The notes under the pieces: model-generated
Seen by the model: the letters and a program-made list of their open reading frames with translations, nothing else
The model's database searches: none
Told to the model about the DNA's origin: nothing
Assembly (NCBI GenBank): GCA_963702125.1
Contig: OY969716.1
Location: forward strand, 2,515,606 to 2,579,605
Direction: 5' to 3'
Source of the DNA: an uncultured Acidobacteriota bacterium
GTDB lineage: Bacteria > Acidobacteriota > Terriglobia > Acidiferrales > UBA7541
Length of the DNA stretch: 64,000 bases
Shown: positions 345 to 30,302 of the stretch, one piece after another
Layout of the letters: every line of letters starts with the position of its first letter
How positions within the stretch are numbered: the first letter of the stretch is position 1
Made by a program: the position numbers and the translations under genes

Positions 345-369
345 CAGTTCCGCTAGTGCGAACCTTTAT

Positions 370-5239: not shown

Positions 5240-5263
5240 TTCGAACGCGTTCAGGAGAAACTG

Positions 5264-6292: not shown

Positions 6293-6342
6293 ACGCTGCG
6301 CGCGTGGGGTAGTCCCGCCTCGGGAGACTGCGCAACGCTGCT

Positions 6343-6364
6343 GAATTCGGCGAACGCCGAATTC
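6343..6364. repeat. 22-nt palindrome GAATTCGGCG-AA-CGCCGAATTC
   Basis: 10+10 perfect inverted repeat read directly from the sequence, about 50 nt downstream of the korB stop. No U-tract follows it. Confidence 0.7.
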
Positions 6365-6549
6365 ACACTGAGGAATGCCAGTGGCATGACGAAGTGCGTC
6401 CAACCCCAATGCCCTTTGCGACTAACGCGTGAGTCAACACTCACCCAAGACTTTGACGTCATCCAGAGGCCGATTCATCGGCCGAAGGATCCCTCTTCGC
6501 CTTCCGTCAACGCAATCGCATCGCCGACATCGAGTCCGCATTTGCGTTG

Positions 6550-6570
6550 CCTGTTCAGATGCTGAACAGG
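6550..6570. repeat. Hairpin CCTGTTCAG-ATG-CTGAACAGG
   Basis: 9-bp perfect stem with a 3-nt loop, in the korB-downstream non-coding tract. Confidence 0.6.
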
Positions 6571-6613
6571 GAAAGCCCTTGCTACCGGCGGAGCCAAGTA
6601 GCAAACTACCTTC

Positions 6614-6832
6614 ATGGCCAAGGTAACGAAAGGGATGCGGCGGGCTGCGAATCAAGCTGCGGACTTGATGATGGCTTCCTTGTCCCAATTTTCCGAGACT
6701 GAGCAGGAAAAGCGGGTTAAGGCCGTTGAGCGAATCGGCCTCAGCGTTTCTTCAAAGAAGCATAAAAAACCTTCAAAGCATTCTCATACCCGGGTGTCCC
6801 GGCCTTCAGTCCGACTTCGGACAGCATCCTGA
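6614..6832 (+). CDS. Hypothetical small protein (72 aa), doubtful
   Basis: The first ~45 aa look protein-like (KGMRRAANQAADLMMASLSQFSETEQEKRVKAVERIG). The 3' 92 nt overlap the convergent ORF 6741-6989, and the tail is basic and low-complexity. Confidence 0.25.
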   Translation: MAKVTKGMRRAANQAADLMMASLSQFSETEQEKRVKAVERIGLSVSSKKHKKPSKHSHTRVSRPSVRLRTAS

Positions 6833-6989
6833 CGTAGGCGTGGCTATCGGATTCCGCGATTGCCTTTAGCGCCTCGTTGGCGAGGCGTTTCCTTCTATCC
6901 TCTTCAGCGGTGTCGATTTTTCTCCGTCCGCGGCTTTTCTCTTCGCGCATCACGTCACGGACGTTTTTATCTTTCTCGTTACTTGTCAC
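6741..6989 (-). CDS. Hypothetical small charged helical protein (82 aa)
   Basis: Clean ATG ORF with helical, charged composition. No recognisable family. Confidence 0.4.
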   Translation of the reverse strand: MTSNEKDKNVRDVMREEKSRGRRKIDTAEEDRRKRLANEALKAIAESDSHAYVRMLSEVGLKAGTPGYENALKVFYASLKKR

Positions 6990-7046: not shown

Positions 7047-8414
7047 CTACTGGTTGGATGTAGGCGCCGGAAACGGCGTAGCGACGGCGTTATTACTCGC
7101 AACCGCCGGCGTATTGTGCGCAGCACTCAGCGGCGGCATGATCGCATCCGCCGAATCTCGCGCCTCCGCAAACGCCGTCATGTCGCGCTTCGAAATCGGA
7201 TCACTCGGCGGCAGCGGCAGCCGCTCAAAATTCACAAAGTCCTTCCCCTTCTGAATCCGGAAATCGAGATGCGGCCCCGTCGCAAGGCCCGTCATCCCCA
7301 CAAGCCCGATCGTCTCGCCCTGCGCCACGTGCTCGCCGTTGTGAATCAGAATCCGCGAAAGGTGCATGTAGTACGTCGTGTATCCGTTCGTGTGCTGAAT
7401 CTCGATCAAGTTTCCCGCGCCGCCCTTCGGCCCCGCCCAGATCACGCGCCCTTCGCCAATCGTCTGCACCGGCGTGCCAGTCGGCGCCGCGTAATCGATT
7501 CCCAAATGCGGCCGGTATTCCTTCAAAATCGGATGGAAGCGCGCGTTTGAAAAGTGCGAAGTGATCACCGCCTGAAATTTCAGCGGCGAATGCAGAAACG
7601 CTTTCTTCATCGAGTGCCCGTCCGGCGTGTAATACGCAGGCGCGCCCGTCGGATCGTGGAACAGCACCGCGCGATACGTCCGCGGTCCGTTGTTGTACTC
7701 CGCCATCAAAATTTTCCCGTACGAACTGGTCTCGCCATTCGCGAGGATCTTCTTCTCCACCACCACGCGAAACGTGTCGCCTGGCCGCGGGTCCGTGTAG
7801 AAATCGAGGTCCCATCCAAAAATATCCGCGAGCCGCATCGCCAGTTCCGGCCGTTCGCCCGCATCGATCACCGCGTTGAAAAGCGATCCATGCACCTCGC
7901 CCGCCACGCCCTTTGTCGCCGTCTCGGACGGTATCGTCTGCACTTCGGCATGAAAGTCCGAGTGAGAGCCTCCGCCAGATGCCGAAGCCGCCGCAGGCGT
8001 GATGTGCAGCACGCGGTCCGCGTCGATGCGGTACCGAATCTCGCGCAACTCGCCCATCACCGTGCGACCCACCGAAAGCTGATTCCCCGCGCGCAAATGC
8101 CTCAAATCAAATACCGACTGCGCCGACGCCACCGCACGCGCCGCCAACTCCGGCGCCATCCCCAAATCCTGCAGCAACGCGTTGAACGGATGCCCGGCCG
8201 GCACAATCTTGTCCGTGAAAACCACCACGTTATCCTGGAAGCGATGCGTCTCCACGTGCGACGCCGCGATTTCCGAACTCAAATCCGCTTCCGCCGCCGA
8301 TCGCACGCGCATGGAATACAAAATCGTCGCAGCCGCGGCCACGATCAACACGCACCAAAGCGCCACGCGCACCGCGGTTGGCACCCGGCTTAGTTTCGTT
8401 TCCGTTTCCATCAT
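7047..8414 (-). CDS. M23 family metallopeptidase (peptidoglycan endopeptidase) with N-terminal membrane anchor
   Basis: HLGIDYAAPTGTPV ... YYMHLS ... GLVGMTGLATGPHLDFRI are the M23 HxxxD and HxH motifs. I place the start at the MMETETK methionines (8414), not the track's 8534. Confidence 0.85.
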   Translation of the reverse strand: MMETETKLSRVPTAVRVALWCVLIVAAAATILYSMRVRSAAEADLSSEIAASHVETHRFQDNVVVFTDKIVPAGHPFNALLQDLGMAPELAARAVASAQSVFDLRHLRAGNQLSVGRTVMGELREIRYRIDADRVLHITPAAASASGGGSHSDFHAEVQTIPSETATKGVAGEVHGSLFNAVIDAGERPELAMRLADIFGWDLDFYTDPRPGDTFRVVVEKKILANGETSSYGKILMAEYNNGPRTYRAVLFHDPTGAPAYYTPDGHSMKKAFLHSPLKFQAVITSHFSNARFHPILKEYRPHLGIDYAAPTGTPVQTIGEGRVIWAGPKGGAGNLIEIQHTNGYTTYYMHLSRILIHNGEHVAQGETIGLVGMTGLATGPHLDFRIQKGKDFVNFERLPLPPSDPISKRDMTAFAEARDSADAIMPPLSAAHNTPAVASNNAVATPFPAPTSNQ

Positions 8415-8573
8415 GTATGGCCAACGAGAATAGCAAGGGCGAAGGATTCGCGAAAAGAGAAATGGGACGAAATGCGCAAGCGAGTAAACCCCGATCAAGA
8501 TCGCGCAACGACGCGACTCCGACTCAACATTCACGCCAAATTTTTGAAGGAGATTAAACCACTCAATACAAAT

Positions 8574-9686
8574 TTACTGCGACGCGCCCGCAGGCATCGA
8601 CTGCGCCCGCTGCGCATTCTCGGCGAAATAATTCTTCTCGCGCAGCCCGTGATAAATCTGCCCGGCGATTCCCGAAGCCCGCGGCCCGCTCACCGAACGC
8701 GACCCGCCGCGAATCAGCACCACCAGCACGATTTTCGGATGCGCCTGGTCCGCGTACGAAACGAACCACCCGAGCCGCCCGCCGAGATTTTCGTCATTGC
8801 ACGTTCCGGTTTTTCCCAGCGACTGCTCGCCGTCCGGATCGTAGCTGCGCTTCGCCGTGCCGTACATCACCGCCGCCAGCATGCCTTCGCGCAAGTCCGG
8901 CAAGAGCGGCGCGATGTCCAGCTGCTGCTTCACGCGCGGGGTGAAATTCTCGCGCTCCGCTGAAGTGCGCGGGTACTGCAAATAATACTGTGTACCGCCA
9001 TTCGCGAGTGTGGCCACAAGCGACGCGAGTTGCAGCGGCGTCAAACGAATCCCTTCGCCGAAGCTCGACATGCGGCGCACGCCGCCATACGCCGGAGGCG
9101 CCGACGGTAGAAATCCCGGCTGTTCCTCGGGAATGTTGTAGCCCGCGCGCTGTCCGAGTCCCACTTCCGTCGCGTAGTTGTGCACGCGCGAAAATCCCAA
9201 TTCGCTGCCCACTTCCTCAAAATAAGTATTGTTCGAGTGCGCCATCGCCTCGGTCAAATCCATATACTTGCGGCGCCCGATCTTCAGCATCGTGTCGCGC
9301 GTGATCACGCCTTCTTCCAGGCCCGCCAGCGCGATCACCGGCTTGATCGTCGAGCACGGTTCGAAGCCCGACGAAAACGCCATCTTCTGATTCACGATTG
9401 TCAGGATGCGTCCGGTCGAAGGATCCATCGCCAGCACCGAGCCGTTCGAATGGCCGAGCGCATCAATCGCGAGTTGACGAATGACCGGATCGTCGTAGTC
9501 GGCCACGTCGCCCTTCGTGGGATCGACGGCCTTGTCCACGGTTCCGCGATGGTGTTTCTTCGAAGATGATTTTGTTGGAGTGCTGGCGGCAGGAATCGGA
9601 GCTGCTACGGCTGTGTTGGCCGCGCCGCTGACGAAAAATGAAAGCACAATTGCGAGAAACTGCGCTGAAGCTGGCTTGCGTCGCAT
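8574..9686 (-). CDS. Secreted penicillin-binding transpeptidase-domain protein
   Basis: Signal peptide, then the three motifs STIKP (SxxK), HSNN (SxN) and KTGT. At 370 aa it has no N-terminal dimerisation domain. Confidence 0.75.
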   Translation of the reverse strand: MRRKPASAQFLAIVLSFFVSGAANTAVAAPIPAASTPTKSSSKKHHRGTVDKAVDPTKGDVADYDDPVIRQLAIDALGHSNGSVLAMDPSTGRILTIVNQKMAFSSGFEPCSTIKPVIALAGLEEGVITRDTMLKIGRRKYMDLTEAMAHSNNTYFEEVGSELGFSRVHNYATEVGLGQRAGYNIPEEQPGFLPSAPPAYGGVRRMSSFGEGIRLTPLQLASLVATLANGGTQYYLQYPRTSAERENFTPRVKQQLDIAPLLPDLREGMLAAVMYGTAKRSYDPDGEQSLGKTGTCNDENLGGRLGWFVSYADQAHPKIVLVVLIRGGSRSVSGPRASGIAGQIYHGLREKNYFAENAQRAQSMPAGASQ

Positions 9687-11286: not shown

Positions 11287-12357
11287 TCACTGGTCGATCC
11301 TGTTCGTGCGCGTTAGCGATTCATAAATCGACTTCAAGAAGTCCGCCGCAATCGGCAATTTATTTCCAGGAAACCACGCGCGCCAAGCCTCGGGCATTCC
11401 GCGCGCGACGATCTCGGACTCCGAGCGTCCGGCGGCGATGTCCGCACGAACCTGATCGATCGTCAAATCAACCAGCTTCACGTACTGCGAAAGTTCGGCG
11501 CGATTCGATAACTCGGCGCTGTGGCCTGTAATGATGATCGTGTCGTCGTTGACTTGATCGCGGACAGCCGTGAGAGATTTCGCGATGCCGACCATGTCCG
11601 CGCCACTCGCAAGACTTCCCTTCCCGTCGTAAATGTCGCCTACGTGCACCACATTTGCATTTTTGAAATAGACGACCGAGTCGCCGTCGGTGTGCCCCGT
11701 CGCGTAGTGATCGAGTTCGATATCTTCGCCGTCGAAATGAATCGCCATCGAATCTTTGTATGTGATGCGCGGCAGGGCTTTCTGTGGGTATGGACCGATT
11801 GGCGTTTTCGTCCAGAACGGAGTCTGCGCCGTACTCATTCGCTTGAGCACATTTTCCTGCGCGACGATTACGGCGTCGGGTCCGTAGATTTCGTTGCCGC
11901 CCACGTGGTCGTAGTGCCAATGCGTGTTGATCAAAAATTTCACGGGCTTGCCGCCGAATTCATCGAGCGTTTTCTTCACAATCGGCGCCGCGACGGCTTC
12001 GGGATGATCGACGAGCAGAAGTCCCTCGGGCCCATCGAGAATCAGCACCTTATTAATATCCTCGGGCGTGGTGATCAGCAGCAGCGTCAAGTTCCCGCGC
12101 AGCTTCACCGTCTTCGTAGTCGCCTTCGAGTAGTCGGTAGTCCCCGGCTGCGCGAAAAGCACCGGCGCGAAAAGCAACGCGACCAGTGCAAGTAGCGCAG
12201 GCAATCCTGCCTGTGGGCGAACGGCGCGGGGCAATCCCCGCGCTGTTCGCCGGTTTCCTCTTCGCACTCCAAAACGTAACAAAGCAAAAGCCGTCGCTGC
12301 GCGCGCAGCGACACAGGCAGGATTGCCTATGCTACTTACCGACGACGGCCTACGCAT
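11287..12357 (-). CDS. MBL-fold metallo-hydrolase, probably exported
   Basis: HWHYDHVGGN (HxHxDH) plus downstream His/Asp ligands, with a hydrophobic signal-like segment LLALVALLFAPVLFAQ. The true start is uncertain; the track start overlaps the hbd 3' end by 8 nt. Confidence 0.75.
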   Translation of the reverse strand: MRRPSSVSSIGNPACVAARAATAFALLRFGVRRGNRRTARGLPRAVRPQAGLPALLALVALLFAPVLFAQPGTTDYSKATTKTVKLRGNLTLLLITTPEDINKVLILDGPEGLLLVDHPEAVAAPIVKKTLDEFGGKPVKFLINTHWHYDHVGGNEIYGPDAVIVAQENVLKRMSTAQTPFWTKTPIGPYPQKALPRITYKDSMAIHFDGEDIELDHYATGHTDGDSVVYFKNANVVHVGDIYDGKGSLASGADMVGIAKSLTAVRDQVNDDTIIITGHSAELSNRAELSQYVKLVDLTIDQVRADIAAGRSESEIVARGMPEAWRAWFPGNKLPIAADFLKSIYESLTRTNRIDQ

Positions 12358-17005: not shown

Positions 17006-18040
17006 CTACTGCCAAAAATATACGCTGAGTTCTTTCGACGGGACGAAGTCGGTGAGTTTGGCCGAGAAGCGGTGTTCGTCGAGCCGCGTAACCAGACCGT
17101 TCCAGCAGAACGAAGTTGGCAGCGGGCCGTCCGGCGGGACGCCGTTCGCGTCAACGATCAGCTCGAAATCGTGAATCGGCGTCTTCGAAGTGTTCGCGGA
17201 CGTGAGAATGTAATCCACGGTGGTTGCGAAGCGAAATCCACTACCGGTTTGTTGCCCGAGTTTCTTGGCTTCGGACGGTTCGACGCACGCCTGATCAACG
17301 AACACGGCAACACCCTTTTCTCCTTGCTCCGTTCCCCGCTTCACCTGCGCGCGATATTTGGGATCGAAGTACTCAACCGGCACCTGCGCAGACCCGGCCA
17401 CAGGCATGTATTCGTGGCGGATATGGACAGTCGCGCCGGCGGGAAAAATTTGGTCCCAGTAATAGAGTTTACGGACCTTCCAGTCGGGCCAGTAGTGGTC
17501 GTGCTAATCGTGATCGACCAATCTCAATGCGACGAGCCAGTCCCGTTGCGGTTGCGAAAGTGCGTACAACCCAACAGGAGGCCGTCCGGTGATGAACTGA
17601 TCGGGGTCAAAAACGCCGGCGAGGCCTTCGACGTCGATTTTCATCGAACGAAGCAACGCGTAGTAATCCTTACCGTGCCGCTCGGCGCGGACCTCGGTTT
17701 TGTGTGCGATTGGCGCGCCGTTCACCGACACCTGAAAATTTGGAAAGTTCGGAATGCGTTCGTCGTAAATCTTGTCACAGCTGTACGTCGGAATTGGGAA
17801 AGCGACGGTCGTGGTGACGTCGGAAGCGGTTTCGTTGACAAAATCGAAGTCCACGGAAACTTTTCCCGCGGCAGCGATGGTGAGGACTTCTTTCTGCATG
17901 GTGATGCGGGGTTCTTTGCGGAGGACGATGCCGCCCGCGGCTACGGAGGCGGCGCCGTCGTCGGCGTGGAGGGCGGCGGTGAAGGTTGCGAGTGCGATCA
18001 CGGCCGTTGCGAGTGTTAGGTTGCGGGAGTATGCGCGCAT
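17006..18040 (-). pseudogene. DUF4424-like exported protein interrupted by an in-frame TAG
   Basis: ORFs 17504-18040 and 17006-17407 are in the same frame. The only break is TAG at 17504-17506 (..LVDHD*HDHYWPDWKV..), and the 32 codons between stop and next ATG read as normal protein. The joined length is about 344 aa. Confidence 0.5.
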
Positions 18041-18155
18041 AGTTCCCTTTTGGGGATTGTACTGCGGCGTAATCGAGATGGCGAGAGGTGGGATTGTGGA
18101 AGGTTCACAGACTGACAGTCTATGTTACAGCTCGCTGCGCTCGCCCAAGGAGTCG

Positions 18156-19952
18156 CTAAGAGACGATGACGGCGCGGAACATGCCGGCTTCCAGGTGGTA
18201 GAGGAGGTGGCAGTGGTAGGCCCAGTGGCCGGGGGTGTCGGCGCTGACTAGGTAACTCAACTTTTCGGCGGGCTTCAGGCTGATGGTGTGTTTGTAGGGG
18301 AGGTAGGCGCCGTTGCCGTTCTCGAGTTCGCCCCACAGGCCGTGGAGATGAATTGGGTGCTCCATCATCGTGTCATTAATAAGGATGATTCGGAGGCGTT
18401 CGCCGAGCTTCATGCGCACGGGTTCGGCGTTGGGGTATGCGAAGCCGTCGAAGCCCCAGATGTACCGGCTCATGTTGCCGGTGAGATGCAGTTCGATTTC
18501 GCGGCTCGGCGGGCGACCATCAACGCCGGGGAAAAGTGCACGGAGATCGGCGTAGGAGAGGACCCGGCGGCCGTTGTCCCGCACGCCGTCACCCGGATCG
18601 GCGAGACGCGGCTGCGGATTTGCGGCGACGGACGAGATGCTTGGCCCGATTTTGATGGGAACGGAATCCCTCTGCACCACGGGCACCGGCGTGCCCGGCG
18701 CCGGTATAAATCGCGGAGTGTGAGGTCCGGGTTGAGGGAGCGGTTCGATGCCGAAAATTTCCGGGCGCGTGATGTAGAACGGGTGATGCATCACACGCAC
18801 ACCGTGATTCCCTGCCGCGTGCATCGAGTGCATGTCTGACTTTGCGGGCATGGACGACATTTGAGACTGGTCACCCATCGACTTACCCATTTCAAGCATC
18901 GTGCGCGTCGGGACTGGATCCATCGGCGGAATTTCGGCGGTCATGCCGCGTTTCGGCGCGAGAGTTCCGCGCGCGTAAGCGCCGCGCGACAGCGGCTGCA
19001 CGAAAATCGTGTACGCGCGATCGGCGTCTGGTTTGACGATCACGTCGTAGCACTCCGCCGTAGCCATCCGAAATTCGTCCACTTCCACGGGGACGATGGC
19101 ATTGCCGTCGGCGGCGACGACGGTCATTTTCAAACCGGGGATACGGACATCGAAGTAGGTCATCGCGGAGCCGTTGATAAAGCGAAGGCGGACGCGCTGG
19201 CCCGGCTCGAACAGCGCGGTCCAATTCGCCAGCGGCGGTTTTCCGTTGATCAAGTAGGTGTACACGGACGCGCCGACATCGGCGAGGTCGGGGCCGGCGT
19301 TTTTGTTGGGTCCACTTCCCTTCAGCAAACTCGCGTAAATCGTGTCGGGATTTTCGTCGGACCAATCGGACAGCATCACGACGTAATCGCGATCGTAGGC
19401 GATGGGATCGGCGGAATCCGGATCGATGATCAGCGCGCCGGCGTGGCCGAGTTGCTCCTGGAAATCGCTGTGGCTGTGATACCAGTAGGTGCCGCTCTGT
19501 CGAACGGGAATGCGGTAAATAAAAGTTTCGCCAGACGCAATGCCGGCGAAGCTGAGGCCGGGGACGCCGTCCATTTCGGACGATGCGCGAATGCCGTGCC
19601 AGTGAATCGAGCTGGATTGAGCGAGCTTGTTAGTGACCGCGATCGTGACGTCGTCGCCCTGGCGCCAGCGGAGAGTGGGGCCGGGATGCGTGCCGTTGAT
19701 CGCGATGACGGGCGCGGGCTTGCCGGTGATGTTGGTGGTGAGTTGCTCGATGGTGAGATCGAAGTGAGTGCCGGTGAGGACTGTGGGCTCGCCGGCTTCG
19801 CGTGACTTGTCGAGCGTGGGTGTGGCGTGCAAGATGCCGCGAGGAAACGCGGAGACGATTCCGGCGGCGGCGATTCCCTGCACGAAACGGCGGCGCGTCA
19901 CGTGTTGCAGCGGCGCGGGCGGCTCGACGGCTGGGCGGCGTCTTCGAGACAC
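18156..19952 (-). CDS. Tat-exported multicopper oxidase (CopA/PcoA type)
   Basis: Twin-arginine signal TRRRFVQGIAAAG. Copper ligand motifs HWHG, HSH, HPIHLHG and HCHLLYHLEAGM are present. It also has a Met/His-rich insert (MGKSMGDQSQMSSMPAKSDMHSMH). Confidence 0.9.
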   Translation of the reverse strand: MSRRRRPAVEPPAPLQHVTRRRFVQGIAAAGIVSAFPRGILHATPTLDKSREAGEPTVLTGTHFDLTIEQLTTNITGKPAPVIAINGTHPGPTLRWRQGDDVTIAVTNKLAQSSSIHWHGIRASSEMDGVPGLSFAGIASGETFIYRIPVRQSGTYWYHSHSDFQEQLGHAGALIIDPDSADPIAYDRDYVVMLSDWSDENPDTIYASLLKGSGPNKNAGPDLADVGASVYTYLINGKPPLANWTALFEPGQRVRLRFINGSAMTYFDVRIPGLKMTVVAADGNAIVPVEVDEFRMATAECYDVIVKPDADRAYTIFVQPLSRGAYARGTLAPKRGMTAEIPPMDPVPTRTMLEMGKSMGDQSQMSSMPAKSDMHSMHAAGNHGVRVMHHPFYITRPEIFGIEPLPQPGPHTPRFIPAPGTPVPVVQRDSVPIKIGPSISSVAANPQPRLADPGDGVRDNGRRVLSYADLRALFPGVDGRPPSREIELHLTGNMSRYIWGFDGFAYPNAEPVRMKLGERLRIILINDTMMEHPIHLHGLWGELENGNGAYLPYKHTISLKPAEKLSYLVSADTPGHWAYHCHLLYHLEAGMFRAVIVS

Positions 19953-21456: not shown

Positions 21457-21476
21457 GTGGCGAGTCTCCTGAGGCT

Positions 21477-21534
21477 AGAAGGAAATTTTATACGAGCTAT
21501 AAGTATAGGCGCGGGGCGATGAGGCGGTCAATTT
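21477..21534 (-). promoter_or_regulatory. Thiolase promoter module (copy R1 of a 58-nt repeat)
   Basis: The minus strand reads TTGACC-N18-TATACT about 45 nt upstream of the thiolase ATG, with an AGGAG RBS in between. TATAC-N9-GTATA overlaps the -10. A second copy lies at 22339-22396. Confidence 0.5.
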
Positions 21535-21637: not shown

Positions 21638-22237
21638 ATGAAATTCATACGCGCCGCTATTCTTGCAGCGCTCATTCTTACTGCCGCGCAAGCGCAAGAG
21701 CCGGCGCAGGAAGCGTCGACGCCGAAGGCCGATAGCGTCGTCAATAGTGACACATCTTGGTTCGACGATTGTCTGGCGCTGCAATACAAGCTGCCGGACG
21801 GATGGGAATTTCGGAATGCGGCGGCAAAACCGGTCCAAGAGTCGAACAAACAGAAGCTTCTGTTCAGAACGCGAAAGGAAAATGCGGACGGAGCTCGCGA
21901 GTCGGTGGAGGTGGACCTTGTCGAGGCTCCGCTTCAGCACCCGATTCTGGAGCGTCTTGCGGCGCTCTTTGCGCTAACCTATTTCCAGACAAGCGGCAGC
22001 AAAATCACCAGAGACGCCTATTCCGTGAAAGTTGCGAAACGGAATTTTGGCCGAAGCGATCTAAGCAACGGCGACAAAATGCGCGCGGTAGTGGTGACTT
22101 GGTATCGCGGATACGCCGTGCTGTCATGGGCATCCGCGGGGTCGTCCCAAAGTCTCGACGACGCTGTGAACTCTTTGAATTCACTAACCTTTGGCGAAGA
22201 CAAACGGACAGCGGACTGTTTGAGTGCGGCGGATTAG
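21638..22237 (+). CDS. Hypothetical secreted protein
   Basis: 199 aa with signal peptide MKFIRAAILAALILTAAQAQ. No recognisable domain. Confidence 0.5.
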   Translation: MKFIRAAILAALILTAAQAQEPAQEASTPKADSVVNSDTSWFDDCLALQYKLPDGWEFRNAAAKPVQESNKQKLLFRTRKENADGARESVEVDLVEAPLQHPILERLAALFALTYFQTSGSKITRDAYSVKVAKRNFGRSDLSNGDKMRAVVVTWYRGYAVLSWASAGSSQSLDDAVNSLNSLTFGEDKRTADCLSAAD

Positions 22238-22338
22238 CCGAGCACGGCGGATGAACGGGCCGCGCGGAAAAGCAAGATGGCCCGGACTATGCGGTGGCGA
22301 TGGCGGCCGGTTTTCTGCGCGACGAGGCTGCGAGAGCC

Positions 22339-22396
22339 AGAAGGAATTTTTATAAGAGCTACACGTATAGGACTGGGTGTCGGGCGCGGTCAATTT
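22339..22396 (-). repeat. Copy R2 of the 58-nt thiolase-promoter module
   Basis: It aligns without gaps to 21477-21534 at 44/58 identities, and 29 of the first 33. It retains TTGACC-N18-TATACG on the minus strand. Confidence 0.6.
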
Positions 22397-22714
22397 GCTG
22401 AGGCGTAGCTTGGAGAGCGTCAGCAGAAGCGCCATCACAAAGAACAGAAGCTCTTAGTAATTTCATTGACAATATACATGCAGAAGTACACAGTTGTTGC
22501 TGACCTGGGACGCTTCACTTTGCCTTAACCCATCAAGGTTACCTGATCCACCCCTCGCCATCTGATCTACCCGGCAACAACTAGCTCCGCGCGAGAATAA
22601 ACGCAGCGGCACCCGCTTTATGTAACCGTCCGATTGAACGTCCAACCTGGGCCAGCTTCTCAAAGGCTGGGCTCGAACGTGAACGTGGCGTTATTAAGCC
22701 ACAGGAGCAAACAA

Positions 22715-22870
22715 ATGAAAGATGCTAAATCAACGAAATGCGAGCACCCGGTGTGTTCGTGTGTCGTCACTTCCGGTAAATATTGCAGCGCCGCCTGCGA
22801 AGCCATGGAAAAAACGCCCGACATCGACTGCTCGTGCAGCCATTCGGTTTGTAAGGGCAAAACGTCCTAG
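22715..22870 (+). CDS. Bacterial metallothionein (BmtA/SmtA-like)
   Basis: 51 aa with 8 Cys and 2 His. The pattern KCEHPVCSCVV...YCSAACE...DCSCSHSVCKG parallels SmtA (KCACEPCLCNV...YCSEAC...GCGHTGCNC). An AGGAG RBS lies 8 nt upstream of the ATG at 22715. The track's longer ORF starts at 22634. Confidence 0.6.
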   Translation: MKDAKSTKCEHPVCSCVVTSGKYCSAACEAMEKTPDIDCSCSHSVCKGKTS

Positions 22871-22930
22871 CAATTGGGAATAGGCAAGATATTCGTGGGA
22901 GAAATTGAAAGGCCCGAAAAAAGGAGATTT

Positions 22931-23182
22931 ATGTCAAAGCAATCCGCAGAGCATCACACGAAAGCCGCAGAGCACCTCGAGCACGCAGCGAAACATCACA
23001 AGGAAGCAGCAAAGCACCATGAGTCCGGCCACGCAGAGACTGCGGCACACCACGCTCATCTAGCGCACGGTCACACACAGTTCGCAAACCACCACGCAGG
23101 CGAAGCTGCCAAGTCCCACATTGCCGACCACAATGCGTCGAAGTCCACAACCGACGAAAAGGCTAAAGCGACGAAGGCGTAG
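22931..23182 (+). CDS. Histidine-rich small helical protein (putative metal-binding)
   Basis: 83 aa, about 20 of them His, arranged as repeated AAxHH/HHxxAA units (EHHTKAAEHLEHAAKHHKEAAKHHESGHAETAAHHAHLAHGH). AAGGAG lies upstream of the ATG at 22931. Confidence 0.55.
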   Translation: MSKQSAEHHTKAAEHLEHAAKHHKEAAKHHESGHAETAAHHAHLAHGHTQFANHHAGEAAKSHIADHNASKSTTDEKAKATKA

Positions 23183-23318
23183 TGAGCGGCTCGGCGGGAA
23201 TCCAGCCCAGCCCGCCCGCCGCGGTTCCTGCGAGCCCGCCGCTTCAACAAGCGTGGAATTTCGCAGTGCTTATGCGCGTCGTGCTGGTCACTAAACACGA
23301 GAAAACTTGGGGGTAGCA

Positions 23319-23549
23319 ATGGCTTCACCTGTCGATCCACTCTGCAATTCCTGGCAGCATCTGTATCAGCAGACGTGTTCCGAAACGAATTCTGAAAAGT
23401 TGCCGGGATTAGTCTCTCGGTTGGAAGACGCCATACTGCTGCGCCAAACCGAACTCGTCACAAGCGCGGACCATCGCGAAGAGCGAATTGCGATGAGGCT
23501 CGCGTCGATAGCGGTCCTGCGAATTAAGACTTACGAACTGGGTCGATAG
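23319..23549 (+). CDS. Small paralogue A (76 aa), unknown function
   Basis: First of three tandem same-strand genes. All share W-x9-E-x2-S-x-KL-x7-E-x5-R-x2-E in an ungapped alignment. Confidence 0.5.
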   Translation: MASPVDPLCNSWQHLYQQTCSETNSEKLPGLVSRLEDAILLRQTELVTSADHREERIAMRLASIAVLRIKTYELGR

Positions 23550-23582
23550 GTTCGCACGATCCATAAGCCGCACGGAGATTCA

Positions 23583-23819
23583 ATGTACACATGGGAACGC
23601 GCAGTTCAGCTCGCGATTAGTGAAACGCAAAGCACCAAATTGCACGGAGCAATTTTGGATGCGGAGGCACTCATCTTCACGCGTGGCATCGAGCTTTCAT
23701 CGGAGAGCCGCAAGCATAGCGTTGCTGTGGAACGGGCCGCGATGGAGATCGCGAGTGAAAAGCTATCGAACCTGAAGGCGACGATGATGAAGTGGCCGTC
23801 GCCGGATTTCGTCCGGTAA
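23583..23819 (+). CDS. Small paralogue B (78 aa), unknown function
   Basis: WERAVQLAISETQSTKLHGAILDAEALIFTRGIEL aligns without gaps to A and C. It starts 33 nt after A. Confidence 0.5.
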   Translation: MYTWERAVQLAISETQSTKLHGAILDAEALIFTRGIELSSESRKHSVAVERAAMEIASEKLSNLKATMMKWPSPDFVR

Positions 23820-23860
23820 CGGATTTGATTTGATGAAGTGGTTGAAACACGGAGGCCCGG

Positions 23861-24091
23861 ATGCAAGCAGTGTCAGGTTACTCGTGGGAACGGATTTGCC
23901 GCGCCGCTGAAACTGAGCGAGACTCGCTGAAGTTGAGAGATCGAATACGCGAGGCCGAGCGCACCCTATCCTACCGGTCACAGGAAATTCGCGGATGTTC
24001 CGAAGGCGAAGAAGAAACTCGTGCGATTCGTGATGCATCCGACCGCCTTCGATTCATCGCTACGGAACGGTTGGAACCTTCAGACCGATAG
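23861..24091 (+). CDS. Small paralogue C (76 aa), unknown function
   Basis: WERICRAAETERDSLKLRDRIREAERTLSYRSQEI aligns without gaps to A and B. It starts 41 nt after B. Confidence 0.5.
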   Translation: MQAVSGYSWERICRAAETERDSLKLRDRIREAERTLSYRSQEIRGCSEGEEETRAIRDASDRLRFIATERLEPSDR

Positions 24092-24392
24092 CTCAGCGCC
24101 CCGCAGGTTCGCTCGAACTTCAACTGGAGACGTTGGCCAGTTATATTTGCCGCTGGCTGCTTGTTTCTCAGGATTGTGCAAATGATTCGTCGCGCTGGAT
24201 GCAGGGCGCGCAGGCGTGCGCTAAAAACGCGCGCGCGGCGGCGGGAGTGCGTGTAGAATTTTCGGCGTAGCCGTGTAGTGGCGACGTTTCTTCCACCTTG
24301 TAGCGCGTGCTTGACGCGTACTGCTCGGTTGGCCCCTTTGAGACGTTTCTAACATTTCCCGACAAAGCGATGTGTGTGTGCGGAGGACGCGT

Positions 24393-25238
24393 ATGGCGCA
24401 TTGGGGCCGGAGTGTAATTGGGGCGGTGGCGGGCGTCGTGGCGATGGGGTGCGCTGCTCGGCCTGTGGCGCAGGATTTGGCGAACCGGAAGCAGATTCTC
24501 GCCGACGCGAAGGCGGCGCAATACAGTTTGTTGCACGAGGGGATGCAATCGCTCCGCTGCACGGCAACGTTCGATTGGGTGAGGTTTCTTGATTGGAGCG
24601 GGCCGCAGGACGGGTCAGACAAGGCGATTCTCGCGTCGCTCGCGGCGTCGCACTACGAGGTGACGATCGACGACGCGGGGACGCCGGCGGTTGCGTCGGT
24701 GACGGGTGCGATGCCGGCGAATGCGACCGATGCCAACGCGGTGCTCGGCGAAATCGAAGGCATGCGGCACACGCTGGAATCACTGCTGAACGCGTGGACC
24801 GGCTACATGGCGGCGACGGTGCTGCCGCCCGGCGACGTGGACATTCATATGGTCGAAAGCGGCGGCACGTATTACCTGAAATATTTCATCGGCGACACGT
24901 CGTTTGCGATCGACATGAACGCGAAGTATGAGATGGCGCGCGTGTGGGAGAAAGACACGAAAAGCATGAGCGAAATTCATCCCGCGTTTGACGCGACGCC
25001 GAAGGGATTCGTGCTGAAGGGATACGAGGGCAGCTTCGAGAGCTATGAGAAGAACCGCACTACGACGGCGAAGCTGACGCTCGAGTACGAAACCGTGGAC
25101 GGGCTGCTGGTGCCGCAGACGCTGACGGAACTGGTTCCCGGCAAGCGCGGGACAGACACGGGCAAATTTGTATTCCAGGATTACAAGATTACGAAACGGG
25201 CGGCCGCATCGGGCGCGGCCAGTGGCGTGACGCGCTAA
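24393..25238 (+). CDS. Hypothetical exported protein (possible LolA-like fold)
   Basis: Signal/lipobox-like AGVVAMGCAARP with beta-rich sequence. GGAGGA lies upstream of the ATG at 24393. Confidence 0.45.
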   Translation: MAHWGRSVIGAVAGVVAMGCAARPVAQDLANRKQILADAKAAQYSLLHEGMQSLRCTATFDWVRFLDWSGPQDGSDKAILASLAASHYEVTIDDAGTPAVASVTGAMPANATDANAVLGEIEGMRHTLESLLNAWTGYMAATVLPPGDVDIHMVESGGTYYLKYFIGDTSFAIDMNAKYEMARVWEKDTKSMSEIHPAFDATPKGFVLKGYEGSFESYEKNRTTTAKLTLEYETVDGLLVPQTLTELVPGKRGTDTGKFVFQDYKITKRAAASGAASGVTR

Positions 25239-25245
25239 CGCGGGG

Positions 25246-27786
25246 TCATAGAGGCAGGTTCAGTTTCTTGAGGAGCGAGGCCCAGCGCGGGTCGGAGTGG
25301 AGCGAGTCGAAGGCTGGGAAGCGGATGACGGCGGTGAGCTCGTCGTCTTTGTCCACGAGGGCCTGATTGAGCAGCTCGAAAGCTTTGTCGCGATTGCCTG
25401 CCAGAGCGTGGGCGGCTGCGGCATTCGCGGGAAGATCACCGACGCTACTGGCGTCCATCAGCGCCGCGTATCCCTGAGCGTCCGGCGACCAGGTTCGGGA
25501 CGCTGAGGCCTCACCGCGAGCCCCGGCTTTCCGGATCGTCGCGATCGCGTCGGCCCACTGGCCCTGCATCGCCTGGAACTGCGAAAGATAGAAAAAGCCA
25601 GGGACGAAGTTCGGATCGCGCTCGAAAACTTTGTCGAATTCCTGGCGCGCTTCGGGGTATTTGTGCGCGTCGATGAGCGTCAGCGCGTAGTTCGTTCGAA
25701 TGATCGACGCCAGCGGATCGAGCGCGAGAGCGAGGCGGAACTGGTCCTCGGCCTCGTCGAGCTTGTTCATCGGCATCAGGTAGTTGAAAGCGTAAAAGTA
25801 GTGCGCGGCGGAGTTATTGGGATTGAGTTCGATGGCGCGTCGAAATTCGCGTTCTGCCTCGCTCCAATTCCACACTTGCGCGAGCGCACTGCCGCGCGCG
25901 ACGTGCGCTTCGGAGCTGGTGTCGTCAAGCTCGACGGCTTTCCTGGAGGCTTCATCGGCAAGCGCTAACGCCTGCGCCGGGGGAATGAGCCGACCGTAAC
26001 CCGACGCCACAATATAGCTGGTCGAAAGCCCCGACCAAGCGAGCGAATAATTGGGATCAGCGGCGACGGCCTGCTTGAAGAGGTCCACACTTTTGAGGAT
26101 TCCGGGTTTGGTGCGGCCGTAGAGCTGCTGCTGCCCCTCGAGGTAGAGCCGGTACGCTTCGGGATTCGAAGTCCCGGCGTTGCCGAGATTTGCGTGTGAC
26201 GCGGATGTGTGCGGCTGAAGCTTATTTGCGACGTCGCGTGTGATGTCGCTCTGCACCTGCGTGACGTCGGCCATTTTTCTTTCGTAGTGGCCGCCCCACA
26301 TTTCGGAGCCGTCGCTGGCGTTCACGAGGTCGGCCTGGACGGCGACGGTGTCACCGTGTTGCGTGACGCGGCCGACGAGGAGCGCGCCGACGTTGAGCGC
26401 TTTGCCGATTTTTTGCGGGTCGTCTTCGTTATTTTTGAAGCGGAAGACGGTGCTGCGCGCCATCACTTTCACATCGGGCAGCTGCGAAAGCGTGCCGATG
26501 AGGCTTTCGGTGAGGCCGTCGCTCAGGTATTCGATGTTGGGGTCGGACGTCGTATTGACGAACGGCAGGACGGCGATGGAGGTGACTTTCGTTTCCGGCG
26601 CGCGGCCGCGGAGGAAATAGTAAGACGCAGCGGCGACGGCAACGATCGCGATTGCGGCGACAGCGAGCCACAACATTTTCGAGGATCTTGGCGCGGGTGC
26701 GATGGAGCTGGTGTTGCCGGCTTGAGTTGCGGCGGGCGACGATACGTGTGACGCCGAGCCAGCAATCGCGGTGGCGGATGAAGATGCAGCGCTGATCGGC
26801 GCGGACGATGCGGGGCCGGAGTCGAGCGCGAGGCTTGCGCTTGACGTGGCGGGATCGGCGACGCGCGAGGAGCGGCCGGAATCGAGTTCGCGTTTGAGGC
26901 GCGCGAGGTCGGTTCGAATGTCTTTCGCGGATTGGTAACGGAGCGAGCGATCCGTTTCGAGCGCTTTATCGATGATGTGCTCGAGGCCCGCGGGAATTTC
27001 GGGATTGAGGCGGACGGCTTGGATGTAGGTGCCGTCGAGAATCGATTTGAAGATGACGGCGGACGTCTCGCCGCGGAACGGCAGCGAGGCGGTGGCCATC
27101 TCGTACAACACGGCGCCGAAGGAAAAAAGATCGGAGCGGCCGTCGAGTTCCTTGCCGCGGACTTGCTCGGGCGACATGTAAGCGACGGTGCCCATGGTGC
27201 TACCGGGACTGGTAAGGTGTTCGGCGCCCGCATCGGCGCGCGTTGCGCCCTGGGTCGCGTCGGACGCGATCCGCGAAGCGGAGCTTGCGCCGTCGGTGAA
27301 GGTGACCTTCGCGAGACCGAAGTCGAGAATTTTCGCGTGGCCGCGCTTGGTAACGAAAATGTTGGCGGGCTTGATGTCGCGATGGACAATGCCTTCGGAG
27401 TGCGCGGCGTCGAGCGCATCGGCGATGTCGATGGCGAGCGTAAGCAGATCTTCGGTGTCGAGCGGGCGGCCGGAGATGCGGTGCTTGAGCGTTTGCCCGT
27501 CGAGAAATTCCATGGCGATGAAGGCCTGGCCGTCTTGCTCGCCGATGTCGTAAATGGTGCAGATGTTGGGGTGATTGAGCGCCGAGGCGGCCTGGGCTTC
27601 GCGCTGGAAGCGGGCGAGAGCTTGCGGGTCGCGCGCGACGTCTGCCGGGAGAAATTTCAGCGCGACGAAGCGGCGGAGGCGCGAATCTTCGGCTTTGTAA
27701 ACGACACCCATGCCGCCACCGCCGAGTTTTTCCACGATTCGGTAGTGCGAGATGGTCTGGCCGATGGGCCGTTCTGGGTCCGGCAT
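25246..27786 (-). CDS. Membrane Ser/Thr protein kinase with periplasmic domain and C-terminal TPR repeats
   Basis: Hanks kinase motifs [25 protein letters not shown] and YMSPE. These are followed by an S/A-rich linker, one TM helix, a TolB-N-like module and several TPR units. Confidence 0.9.
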
Positions 27787-27994: not shown

Positions 27995-29062
27995 ATGAAC
28001 AGAATTTCCGGACCCCAATTGATATTTCCAACTATGGAAAGAATTGAGAACCCGTGGCGCGTATCTTCTTTAGAAACTGAGCGCATAGGGGAAATTTCGT
28101 CAACGGGCTTGGCGACTGTCGAAGTGTGCGCAGGCGCTGGCGGACAGGCACTGGGATTCGAGAATGCAGGGTTTGAGCACGCCGCGCTTGTTGAGATCGA
28201 CCAGCATGCCTGTGCCACTTTGAAACATAACCGGCCGAACTGGAACGTTCGTAATGACGACCTCTCGAAGTTCAAAGGGAGACCGTACCGCGGAGTCGAT
28301 TTAGTCTCCGGCGGGCTGCCGTGCCCACCCTTCTCTATTGCAGGAAAGCAATTGGGCGACGGCGATGAGCGAAATTTGTTTCCCGCGATGATCCGTCTCG
28401 TCGATGAAATCCGGCCTCAGGGAGTGATGATCGAGAATGTCCGCGGCATACTGGATCCACGATTCGACGACTACAGAGCGCTGATCAGTTCCTCATTCCG
28501 CAAACTTGGGTTTGATACCGGTTGGAAGATGATGAACGCCTCCGATTTCGGAGTTCCTCAGCTCCGCCCACGAGTGGTATTCGTTGCACTTAAGAAGCGC
28601 TACTCGAGCAACTTCTCATGGCCGCGAGCACTTTCAGGCGCAACGACAACGGTTGCCGAAACAATTGCAGATCTCATCGCGGAACACGGGTGGAAGGGCC
28701 AAAAGGCTTGGTTGGCAAAGTCTCAGCGAATTGCTCCTACGGTGGTGGGTGGCTCTCTGAAACACGGTGGACCCGATCTTGGACCTACGCGAGCCCGGAA
28801 AGCGTGGGCGGAGCTTGGAGTGGACGGGCTCGGAATCGCAAATGATGCACCTTCACGCGACTTTAAAGGAATGCCGAGGTTAACGGTAAGAATGGTCGCC
28901 AGAATTCAAGGATTCCCGGACAATTGGCATTTCGTAGGTAAGAAAACACAGACCTACCGGCAGGTCGGTAACGCATTTCCTCCGCCGTTTGCACGCGCAC
29001 TAGCACAGAGCCTTCGCGACTGTTTGTTATCTGCGAAAGCGCGCTTTGTAGCGGCGGGTTAG
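27995..29062 (+). CDS. dcm: DNA (cytosine-5)-methyltransferase
   Basis: Motif I is EVCAGAGGQALG, motif IV is GGLPCPPFS, motif VI is ENV and motif X is QVGNAFPPPFA. The start may instead be the ATG at 28034. Confidence 0.9.
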   Translation: MNRISGPQLIFPTMERIENPWRVSSLETERIGEISSTGLATVEVCAGAGGQALGFENAGFEHAALVEIDQHACATLKHNRPNWNVRNDDLSKFKGRPYRGVDLVSGGLPCPPFSIAGKQLGDGDERNLFPAMIRLVDEIRPQGVMIENVRGILDPRFDDYRALISSSFRKLGFDTGWKMMNASDFGVPQLRPRVVFVALKKRYSSNFSWPRALSGATTTVAETIADLIAEHGWKGQKAWLAKSQRIAPTVVGGSLKHGGPDLGPTRARKAWAELGVDGLGIANDAPSRDFKGMPRLTVRMVARIQGFPDNWHFVGKKTQTYRQVGNAFPPPFARALAQSLRDCLLSAKARFVAAG

Positions 29063-29105: not shown

Positions 29106-29483
29106 ATGGCGCGCATTCGGGCGAAGAACACCAAGCCAGAGCTTCTCGTAAGGAAGCTGCTATCGAAACTCGGTTACAGATACCGGCTGCACGTCGCACA
29201 TCTTCCTGGCAGGCCAGATCTCGTTTTCAAATCACGGCGGAAAATCATCGAAGTGCGCGGATGTTTTTGGCATTGTCACGGCAGATGCATCGACTCTCAC
29301 GTTCCAAAGTCTCGCCGCTCGTACTGGAAGCCCAAGCTAATTTCCAACGTTCGACGGGACCGCCGGAATTTAGTAGCGCTCCGAAAATCCAAGTGGAAAG
29401 TGCTCGTCGTGTGGGAATGTGAGGTTTTGAAGCACGGCACCGAGCTGGGCGCCAGATTGACTAAATTTCTGGGCCCAGCCTGA
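29106..29483 (+). CDS. vsr: Very-short-patch repair endonuclease
   Basis: NTKPELLVRKLL...LPGRPDLVF...VRGCFWHCHG match Vsr. Family-like residues (SPRRRSAN) are encoded in frame upstream of the first ATG. Confidence 0.85.
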   Translation: MARIRAKNTKPELLVRKLLSKLGYRYRLHVAHLPGRPDLVFKSRRKIIEVRGCFWHCHGRCIDSHVPKSRRSYWKPKLISNVRRDRRNLVALRKSKWKVLVVWECEVLKHGTELGARLTKFLGPA

Positions 29484-29486
29484 CTT

Positions 29487-30302
29487 TCAAACTTTCTTGT
29501 TTCGTTTTTCGCGATCCTTCTCGAATTGTCTGATCGCCGCAGTCGGGTTCTCGGGCCACGGTTTCCAAGCCTTCAGTACGTAATCTGCCTGCTTACGGCC
29601 GCTCGGCGATTTGTACAGGACTGTGCCGATCCTCCAGCCAATCACGGGATAGCGAAGTTCGCGGAGGCGCTTGTGCCAATCATCTTGGTCTGCCACAACC
29701 GCCAACCAAACGGACGGAGTCCGCCTGTCTATTCCGACAGCCTTCAAGAGTTCCCCGAGGCGGACATGAACGCTCGGATCGCCCATCGACCTCTTCATTA
29801 CGGACGACTCGACGTTCAGTGAGTCAAAAAAAGCCTTCTTTCCGGAATTGCATCGATCGCAAACGGCCCACAAATTTGAAGGATCGTTGCTGCCTCCCCA
29901 TTCCCTTGGGCGTTTGTGATCGACGACCAACCGGACACCATGCTCGTCGACGCTTTCTCCGCACATCTGACATCGGCGCCGAGAGAGGTGAAGGATCTCA
30001 GCACGGATGCGCTGACTGATCTCGCCTTCATCAGTGATTTTCTTCTTAGGGCCTATTAGCTTGTAGACAAGAATCCGTCGTTCCTTGCCGTCAACGACTT
30101 CGGTTCGAAACTGCTTTTCGATGTGGAACCATTTGTATAGATCGCGCTTTCTGCGATCCAAATGAGTCTGTTCGTCGGATCTCAAGCCCTGCTTTTCGAG
30201 TTCGCGCCGGATTTCTCCGCTCGACACGCCCTCTGGAAAGCTGACCATGATCTCGACGATTCGCTGATGTATCGATCCCGGCTTGCTCTTCTTCGCGCTC
30301 AC
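29487..30302 (-). CDS. HNH nuclease, probable restriction endonuclease partner of the Dcm methyltransferase
   Basis: The HNH core is CQMCG...VVDHKRPREWGGSNDPSNLWAVCDRCNSGK, flanked by wHTH-like N- and C-terminal regions. It is convergent with vsr across a 3-nt gap. Confidence 0.7.
   Translation of the reverse strand: MSAKKSKPGSIHQRIVEIMVSFPEGVSSGEIRRELEKQGLRSDEQTHLDRRKRDLYKWFHIEKQFRTEVVDGKERRILVYKLIGPKKKITDEGEISQRIRAEILHLSRRRCQMCGESVDEHGVRLVVDHKRPREWGGSNDPSNLWAVCDRCNSGKKAFFDSLNVESSVMKRSMGDPSVHVRLGELLKAVGIDRRTPSVWLAVVADQDDWHKRLRELRYPVIGWRIGTVLYKSPSGRKQADYVLKAWKPWPENPTAAIRQFEKDREKRNKKV

Follow-up and report, generated by a model that had tools for sequence, protein, structure and literature searches.

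Background

What do three small tandem genes that resemble no characterized family do in an acidobacterial genome, and with which partners might their products act? This question is raised by ORF1, ORF2 and ORF3, three consecutive open reading frames (ORFs) on the forward strand of a 64,000-nucleotide stretch of DNA (assembly GCA_963702125.1, contig OY969716.1, positions 2,515,606 to 2,579,605) from an uncultured member of the Acidiferrales, an order within the class Terriglobia; the whole stretch, 64 kb in length, is referred to below as the window. Members of the Acidobacteriota rank with the most abundant bacteria in soil, and to our knowledge their stress and signaling biology is almost unstudied. 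The original prediction, made from the DNA letters and their translations, described the three ORFs as tandem paralogues for small helical proteins and proposed a diversifying family such as adaptors, anti-sigma-like modulators or antitoxin-like binders.

In this work, profile searches, comparative analysis of related loci and structure prediction were combined to characterize the trio. ORF1-ORF3 are real, anciently duplicated genes under purifying selection, and their products belong to a large family from soil Acidobacteria, hitherto undescribed, whose members are cytoplasmic and for the most part acidic three-helix-bundle proteins of 75-90 residues. As to function, we tentatively favor, at distinctly less than an even chance, the reading that they are small protein-binding adaptors, output partners or modulators that would couple a phosphorelay to a stress response. 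Two features had been overlooked in the original prediction, namely the tie of the trio to the metal-type genes upstream and to a DNA element shared with Hsp20 genes, and the very large size of the family.

ORF1-ORF3 are anciently duplicated genes under purifying selection

The three ORFs (Table 1) are separated by 33 nt (23550-23582, ORF1/ORF2) and 41 nt (23820-23860, ORF2/ORF3), and the predicted tandem paralogy on one strand was confirmed by Smith-Waterman comparison of their products, with scores of 55-72, whereas shuffled sequences average about 25 (z = 6.2-10.7; none of 2000 shuffles scored as high). The pairwise identity of the proteins is 27-34%, and their alignment requires one small indel; the invariant columns include W12, E22, S25, K27, L28, E36, R42, E45, E55, A58 and A62, and the previously recognized pattern W-(E/Q)-x8-E-x2-S-x-K-L-x7-E-x5-R-x2-E-(L/I) is present in all three. 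Each ATG is preceded, at a distance of about 6 nt, by a Shine-Dalgarno-like motif (a G-rich GGGGG for ORF1, GGAG for ORF2 and GGAGG for ORF3); an upstream TTG at position 23307 is an alternative start of ORF1 and would extend its product to 80 aa. A scan of the window with the hidden Markov model (HMM) of the family described below detected three copies only, which are ORF1 (85-117 bits), ORF2 (75-105 bits) and ORF3 (76-110 bits).

Every paralogue has its own orthologues in related loci on Acidobacteriota contigs (designated by L-numbers; family proteins are designated by P-numbers). The ratio of non-synonymous to synonymous substitution rates (dN/dS) was calculated by the Nei-Gojobori method for 4-8 orthologues per ORF and falls between 0.05 and 0.22 in every comparison: 0.06-0.14 for ORF1 (77-96% identity; L001, L002, L004-L007 and L053), 0.05-0.13 for ORF2 (67-95% identity; L001, L002, L009 and L053) and 0.08-0.22 for ORF3 (70-95% identity; L002, L009 and L053). 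Between the window and L053, 3 non-synonymous and 11 synonymous differences were counted for ORF1, and 4.5 and 20.5, respectively, for ORF2. The trio of 76, 78 and 76 aa is kept with the same spacing in L053-L060 (90.7% nucleotide identity) and in L002 (about 70%), and a protein identical to that of ORF2 (P0003) has been recorded for an NCBI contig of 4.98 Mb. Since the paralogues have separate sets of orthologues and dN/dS is this low, the duplication is ancient, with purifying selection acting on all three genes, and the diversifying family of the original prediction is not supported.

The same values bear on two alternative explanations. The first, that the ORFs are not genes at all, being chance reading frames or remains of a repeated non-coding sequence, would agree with the poor codon-usage scores of ORF1 and ORF3, both left unselected by a crude log-odds caller, and with the GC content of the segment at 21.4-24.4 kb, which is 54-57% versus 61-65% in the flanks; these two observations count against the coding interpretation. 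Given, however, dN/dS far below 1 for all three ORFs, thousands of homologues of the same length, conserved starts with Shine-Dalgarno-like motifs, a confident predicted fold and no Rfam match, we regard the probability of this explanation as negligible.

According to the second alternative, each protein would bind and neutralize a toxin in the manner of an antitoxin or immunity protein. They are small and helical, and tandem arrays of divergent small helical paralogues are a layout also seen for immunity genes; moreover, in one related locus (L021) an RHH-type gene and a second gene lie just upstream and, judged from their sequences, may form an antitoxin-Doc toxin pair. No toxin-like gene is present beside the trio, however, and none recurs in the approximately 27 independent locus groups, dereplicated by blastn, that were examined. 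The low dN/dS and stable orthologues are unlike those of arms-race genes, no matches were obtained in PADLOC or PHROGs, and no copies of the family were found in plasmid and phage collections by tblastn with one representative member (P0052). This explanation is therefore considered very improbable, and membership in type II antitoxins, an option of the original prediction, or in polymorphic-toxin immunity proteins was rejected on the grounds of neighbors, dN/dS and the PADLOC search. Anti-sigma factors (NepR-, zf-HC2- or RsrA-like), which bind regions 2 and 4 of an extracytoplasmic function (ECF) sigma factor encoded by an adjacent gene, were also rejected: the translations and a Pfam scan of the neighbors revealed no sigma gene beside the trio, and among the related loci with inspected Pfam annotations a gene for an ECF sigma factor occurs within 4 kb in one only (L049).

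A large undescribed family of three-helix-bundle proteins

An exhaustive HMMER profile search of 1.84 billion representative proteins resulted in 2419 matches at E<=1e-3, including 186 at E<=1e-10; each match stands for a cluster at 50% identity, and nearly all are 73-125 aa long. The taxonomic label is Acidobacteriota in every labeled case, and a word-indexed search retrieved close relatives only, the labeled ones among them being 'Candidatus Acidiferrales' and 'uncultured Acidobacteriota'.

The residue signature of the family was computed on 151 members of at most 70% mutual identity and consists of a hydrophobic core and the consensus W...E.D..KL...AE.AI..R..EL...ER.A...A...L...L.WP, over a profile of about 75-90 aa. 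A tryptophan found in 100% of the members opens helix 1, and the junction of helices 1 and 2 is marked by an E(T)D motif with E19 (98%) and D21 (85%), this part of the signature also including a leucine (92%). Helix 2 contains the motif A-E-x-A-I-x-x-R-x-x-E-L, with E33 in 97%, A in 86%, R39 in 99% and L in 83% of the members, and helix 3 starts with E52 (100%), after which A (97%) and two leucines (93% and 97%) precede the C-terminal L-x-W-P, where W/F-P is the common ending (P 87%). ORF1-ORF3 belong to the family by their scores (75-117 bits) and by the signature positions, which are occupied by W, E, L, E, R, E/L, E, A and L. They deviate from it at D21, which is replaced by N in ORF1 and by Q in ORF2, and at the C-terminal W-P, which is present in ORF2 only (E-P in ORF3, whereas ORF1 ends earlier).

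The AlphaFold2 model of the ORF1 protein, built from an alignment of 71 sequences, is a bundle of three helices (residues 9-21, 28-46 and 53-72; mean pLDDT 83, pTM 0.68), in agreement with the all-helical structure expected earlier. Foldseek comparison of this model with the PDB yielded no match at E<=0.001 and retrieved generic helical bundles only (best E = 1.5, TM-score <=0.66, 8-12% identity). The predicted fold is confident but generic, and says nothing on function. Neither ORF1-ORF3 nor 71 diverse members matched any family in Pfam, NCBIfam, PADLOC or PHROGs above threshold, and no library family recurred among the results. The best library match was to DUF7706, in 2 of the 71 members, at E = 0.0034 (cut-off 27 bits), and this match, as well as the weak ones to FliX, Dodecin, Syntaxin_2 and HscB, involved one or two proteins each and was treated as chance. 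Comparison of the sequence profile with the PDB produced nothing below E = 0.086, and no description of the family was found in a literature search, so that the assessment of the ORFs as members of no characterized family stands.

Family proteins are mostly acidic, with a median pI of 5.5 and pI <7 in 88% of cases. They show neither a nucleotide-binding motif nor a catalytic or cofactor signature; metal binding by the family itself was rejected, as no His or Cys column is conserved among the 151 diverse members. Because catalytic and cofactor signatures are lacking, the family proteins would be expected to work by binding other proteins. Arrays of 2-5 family copies are common across the related loci, and a single chain with two family domains is found in 7 of the 150 best-scoring representatives. 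Since tandem arrays and two-domain fusions are this common, the paralogues themselves would be the first candidate partners, and both arrangements suggest that the paralogues act together.

A cassette with an upstream element shared with Hsp20 genes

ORF1-ORF3 are the last genes of a cassette of approximately 1.65 kb, in which they are preceded, in order, by a conserved non-coding element, a Cys-rich gene and a His-rich gene. The sole Pfam match of the Cys-rich protein is to the prokaryotic metallothionein family PF02069, in which a Cys/His pattern binds a Zn/Cd cluster, over the full length and at 10.3 bits (E = 0.85), below the threshold of 33 bits; its pattern K-C...C-x-C-x-V...Y-C-S-x-A-C is one that we take to resemble SmtA/BmtA. 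No Pfam family was identified for the His-rich protein. Orthologues of the Cys-rich gene adjoin family genes in L001, L004, L006, L007, L009 and L053, and those of the His-rich gene were found in L001, L004, L006 and L007.

The window and L053 are collinear over the cassette, with 87% identity at 22452-22870 and 90.7% at 23288-24100. The intervening 417 nt (22871-23287), which hold the His-rich gene, are an indel, and in L053 the Cys-rich gene is followed directly by ORF1. Similarity stops 9 nt past the stop codon of ORF3, and the flanks of the unit differ between the loci: a Crp-like regulator upstream and an alpha/beta-hydrolase downstream in L053, versus an exported 199-aa protein upstream and a probable lipoprotein followed by a Ser/Thr kinase downstream in the window. 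No flanking repeats that could mark the cassette as mobile were found. A 74-nt direct repeat does flank the gene of the exported protein (21461-21534 and 22323-22396; 72% identity, with the AT-rich core GAAGGAA.TTTTATA.GAGCTA.A.GTATAGG), and the end of its second copy is separated by about 60 nt from the conserved element downstream.

The source organism probably has at least two such arrays, as two related loci, L001 and L061, originate from the same sequencing sample (ERR11630394). L061 holds ORF2 and ORF3 identical to the window copies; in L001, a second array, 78% identical, consists of the His-rich gene, ORF1' and ORF2', and an unrelated gene for 165 aa comes after it. From this pair of loci, the cassette may have undergone segmental duplication inside a single genome.

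The element is about 105 bp long and contains the conserved blocks ATTGACAAT, GCACAC(T/A)GT, GACYTGGGA, TTCACTTYGCCTTAA and GGTTACCTGANCCACCCCTCGCCA. By blastn and nhmmer, a single copy per locus was detected, both in the window and in 9 related locus types. In the window, L053 and L009, the Cys-rich gene and the family genes follow it; in L002, the next gene is the ORF1 orthologue; and in L004, L006, L007 and L016/17, the last of these more distant, it is followed by an Hsp20 gene. The Hsp20 identity was confirmed by PF00011 for L006 and L016 (E = 9e-24) and, for L004 and L007, follows from 93-94% identity to the L006 protein. On one strand of L004-L007, the order is family gene, element, Hsp20, Cys-rich gene, His-rich gene and Crp-like regulator, with the ORF1 orthologue divergent from this group. 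In L005, a disrupted remnant is left: about 40 codons into the Hsp20 gene downstream of the element, the reading frame is broken by a long tract rich in C (CCCCCCCCTCCCCCCCCACCCCCCC; approximately 7070-7130, minus strand), which may be an assembly artefact or a slippage-prone tract.

The nucleotide identity of the element (73-87%) is above that of the surrounding coding sequence, and no 3-nt periodicity is apparent. An Rfam scan of 21-26 kb, the element included, gave no match, and an RNA structure is unsupported (fold z = -0.53; compensatory change in 1 of 15 predicted pairs). Scanning for promoters and terminators revealed no site of sigma70 type, and terminator-like hairpins were no more frequent than expected by chance; the sub-motifs of the element were not found upstream of more distant family genes. 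Judged by its conservation, the element is a putative DNA-level promoter/operator or sequence-specific leader common to a small stress regulon, and a candidate for a promoter or operator of the stress response in Acidiferrales-like bacteria. We infer that the trio is co-transcribed from it and, because the same element precedes Hsp20 in relatives, that the three genes would be induced together with the stress regulon.

These data also agree with a different role, in which the family proteins are stress-protective effectors in the manner of CsbD-type general stress proteins, produced in bulk with Hsp20 and the metallothionein-like and His-rich proteins, and serve to shield clients, buffer metals or stabilize membranes or nucleic acids. 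The shared element, the physical linkage, in several genomes, to the genes of the Cys-rich and His-rich proteins, the many copies per genome and locus, the acidic, hydrophilic character of the proteins, and the large share of arrays without a receiver gene nearby (see below) would all be accounted for. On the other hand, the compact, confident fold and the few invariant residues in 151 diverse members speak more for a specific binding surface than for protection in bulk, conserved His or Cys residues that could bind metal are lacking, and the receiver enrichment, the receiver fusion and the recurrent Crp-like regulator would be left unexplained. On balance, we rate such a protective role as nearly as probable as the adaptor reading, likewise well below an even chance.

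Genomic association of the family with receiver domains

Receiver domains (REC) recur next to family genes across the locus groups. A family gene is located directly upstream of a NarL-class receiver-only gene (112-144 aa) in L008 (family-REC-family), L011, L037 and L062 (family-family-REC), the L062 case having surfaced after the receiver hypothesis was formed, and in L043 the two genes are divergently adjacent. The family and REC genes occupy 8001-8255 and 8327-8704 in L008 and 8001-8282 and 8341-8718 in L011; in L062, two family genes at 4582-4806 and 4885-5136 precede the REC gene at 5342-5680. A different receiver architecture, REC-MEDS (a receiver with a MEDS sensory domain), is encoded about 700 nt downstream of a family gene in L023 (1319-2371), and HisKA_3-type kinase genes are found near family genes in L037 and L062. 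In 24 representative loci, REC genes make up 5 of 49 genes adjacent to family genes versus 3 of 195 non-adjacent ones (odds ratio 7.3, Fisher p = 0.009). Furthermore, in the 212-aa protein P0067, present on 24 contigs from several samples, a family domain is fused N-terminally to a receiver with an acidic pocket and a phospho-acceptor Asp, and AlphaFold2 again predicted the three-helix fold for its N-terminal half.

From these adjacencies and the fusion, family proteins may bind receiver domains, NarL-class single-domain receiver proteins being the second candidate partners, family-wide, and the window trio may use the same partners as its relatives. The proteins would then couple a phosphorelay to the stress response as adaptors or output partners, with P0067 as a cis version of the pairing. 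The original suggestion of an adaptor or modulator thus remains the best guess and has gained some evidence from the relatives adjacent to or fused with receiver domains.

Several observations weigh against this reading of the trio as receiver-linked, stress-induced adaptors. The receiver enrichment is moderate and based on crude gene calls, about 80% of the arrays have no receiver neighbor, and the 64-kb window contains no receiver gene, Crp-like regulator or Hsp20 gene, so that the partners are carried over from relatives with only about 30-40% identity. In the AlphaFold2 model of the family-REC fusion, the REC half has pLDDT <50, owing to a shallow alignment, and provides no interface information, and the invariant W/E/R/E residues might be purely structural. 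With respect to expression, no sigma54, sigma32 or sigmaE spacing could be fitted to the element by eye, and the gap of 136 nt between the His-rich gene and ORF1 bears on the proposed co-transcription.

A recurrent Crp/Fnr-like regulator

One orthologous group of Crp/Fnr-like regulators (cNMP_binding + HTH_Crp_2; 56-83% identity between loci) is encoded within a few kb of family genes in 6 locus groups: L004-7, L016/17, L024, L027-30, L049-52 (with two copies) and L053-60. The regulator, which recurs near family genes, Hsp20 and the element, is directly upstream of the element in L053 and divergent from a family gene in L028, and is a candidate master regulator of the module.

The recurrence of this gene in 6 independent locus groups, including the two arrangements just mentioned, could also mean that the family proteins are co-factors of the regulator, that is, anti-activators or co-activators that tune its regulon (Hsp20 and the cassette), with the paralogues serving different inputs. 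We consider this improbable: such a regulator is absent from the window, no family-Crp fusion occurs among the top 150 representatives, no Crp/FNR-type palindrome was recognized in the element on inspection, and the adjacency is equally explained by a regulator that simply controls the family genes.

Returning to the adaptor reading, its most specific form would be that the family is a class of output or adaptor partners for NarL-class single-domain response regulators, with phosphorylation-dependent binding in trans (the trio) or in cis (P0067), by which phosphorelays are coupled to an Hsp20/metal-protein stress regulon under the dedicated Crp-like regulator. In this full form, the proposal is speculative and, in our estimation, unlikely. 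If true, it would describe an acidobacterial general-stress signaling module without a described counterpart, multi-paralogue and expanded across the Acidobacteriota sampled.

Genomic neighborhood

The neighbors stated in the original prediction were found in place (Table 1), with the Cys-rich and His-rich genes upstream of the trio and the probable lipoprotein and Hanks-type Ser/Thr kinase genes downstream. Farther upstream, a multicopper oxidase and a DUF4424 protein are encoded on the minus strand (17504-19952), 3.4-5.8 kb from the trio and 2.8-5.2 kb from the Cys-rich gene; this pair and the first two genes of the cassette lend the neighborhood a metal-handling flavor. On the other side, the segment 27995-30302 is a restriction-modification-type islet with a lowered GC content of 52-56% and atypical codon use, containing genes for a C-5 cytosine methylase (PF00145), a Vsr mismatch endonuclease and an HNH endonuclease. 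In close relatives, family genes are accompanied by a gene for a 115-116-aa membrane protein (2-3 predicted transmembrane segments, no Pfam match above threshold), which is not found beside the window trio.

Table 1. Positions of the cassette, its neighbors and the recurrent features of related loci
Locus	Feature	Position	Strand	Remarks
Window	Conserved upstream element	22457-22564	+	~105 bp, non-coding; first part of the cassette
Window	Cys-rich gene	22715-22870	+	51 aa, 10 Cys; ATG at 22715 preceded by AGGAG; first cassette gene
Window	His-rich gene	22931-23182	+	83 aa; repeated HH..AA.H motifs; second cassette gene
Window	ORF1	23319-23549	+	76 aa from ATG; predicted three-helix bundle; family member
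Window	ORF2	23583-23819	+	78 aa; family member; C-terminal W-P of the family retained
Window	ORF3	23861-24091	+	76 aa; family member; highest charge of the three paralogues
Window	Exported protein gene	21638-22237		199 aa; upstream of the cassette
Window	Probable lipoprotein gene	24372-25238		Downstream of the trio
Window	Hanks-type Ser/Thr kinase gene	25246-27786	-	Downstream of the trio
Window	DUF4424 protein gene	17504-18040	-	
Window	Multicopper oxidase gene	18156-19952	-	
Window	C-5 cytosine methylase gene	27995-29062		PF00145
Window	Vsr mismatch endonuclease gene	29106-29483		
Window	HNH endonuclease gene	29487-30302	-	
L002	Element	4247-4353		
L004	Element	7179-7288	-	
L006	Element	7173-7282	-	
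L007	Element	1584-1691	-	
L009	Element	7249-7353		
L016	Element	326-426	-	
L053	Element	4010-4115		
L004	Crp-like regulator	4577-5254	-	
L005	Crp-like regulator	6193-6900	-	
L016	Crp-like regulator	2655-2989	-	
L024	Crp-like regulator	11500-12177	-	
L028	Crp-like regulator	5046-5720	-	
L049	Crp-like regulator	3421-4134		First copy
L049	Crp-like regulator	4634-5263		Second copy
L053	Crp-like regulator	2945-3667		
L004	Membrane protein gene	8527-8874	-	
L005	Membrane protein gene	8493-8843	-	
L006	Membrane protein gene	8506-8856	-	
L007	Membrane protein gene	2996-3343	-	
L053	Membrane protein gene	1339-1689		

Significance

With this analysis, the family is provided with a profile (at least 2400 clusters at 50% identity), a predicted three-helix-bundle fold and a residue signature, and three candidate partners are proposed for it, namely single-domain receivers, a specific Crp-like regulator and the promoter element of Hsp20 type. 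The receiver link, if true, would answer the question of how receiver-only response regulators yield an output and would define a phylum-specific stress module. Even without this link, the family marks a conserved stress cassette (Hsp20, metallothionein-like and His-rich proteins), and the 105-bp element is still a candidate stress promoter or operator, which would be the first to be defined for the lineage.

Comparison with known systems

Several known kinds of small helical proteins were compared with the family. The Hpt domain is a bundle of four helices, the second of which bears an invariant His as phospho-acceptor; it was rejected, as the family fold has three helices and no conserved His (maximum 35%, at one loop position where ORF2 and ORF3 lack it). 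WXG100/ESAT-6 proteins are helical hairpins of about 100 aa with W-x-G in the turn, encoded by paired genes in a type VII secretion neighborhood; they were rejected on the basis of no Pfam match, the location of the family tryptophan at the N-terminus of helix 1 instead of a turn, and no secretion genes nearby. The three-helix bundles retrieved from the PDB (the Legionella effector Lpg2328, GAT domains, SNARE Habc-like domains and de novo mini-binders) superimpose on the ORF1 model with rmsd 2.6-3.0 A over about 71-73 residues at the TM-scores of up to 0.66 given above, but with a best E of 1.5 and 8-12% identity this is a likeness of shape only. The CsbD-like proteins (PF05532) are likewise small (60-80 aa) and helical, occur as several paralogues per genome and are co-regulated with classical stress genes. 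The family differs from them in having no Pfam match and a different signature, and its receiver link has no counterpart in CsbD.

PhyR-NepR is the partner switch of the alphaproteobacterial general stress response. It resembles the present case in that the helical domain of P0067 is N-terminal to the receiver as in PhyR, that small helical partners are encoded nearby and that a stress regulon is linked. The N-terminal domain of P0067 is, however, a three-helix bundle of 75 residues and not a sigma-like sigma2-sigma4 domain, no EcfG-type sigma factor or NepR is evident, and no homology was detected.

Further analogues are the Spo0E-family aspartyl-phosphate phosphatases and the anti-adaptors or connectors IraP, IraD and IraM, which act on RssB; these are small helical proteins acting on receivers. 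Spo0E itself (PF09388) is a two-helix hairpin with an SQELD motif supplying the catalytic Asp. Membership in this family was rejected, with no Pfam match, no PDB sequence match to it at E<=10, three helices and SQELD absent; a partial R-x-Q-E-L is present in the family, with variable residues after it and with a Q that is found in 58% of the members and is missing from ORF1 and ORF2. No sequence relation to the Spo0E and Ira proteins exists (no Pfam match at E<=0.1 in 71 members), whereas the general features are alike: 60-90 aa, an all-helical structure, stand-alone small genes that are often stress-induced and, in the family described here, adjacency or fusion to receiver-only proteins. The family itself is undescribed, and its role likely resembles those of known kinds of small regulators.

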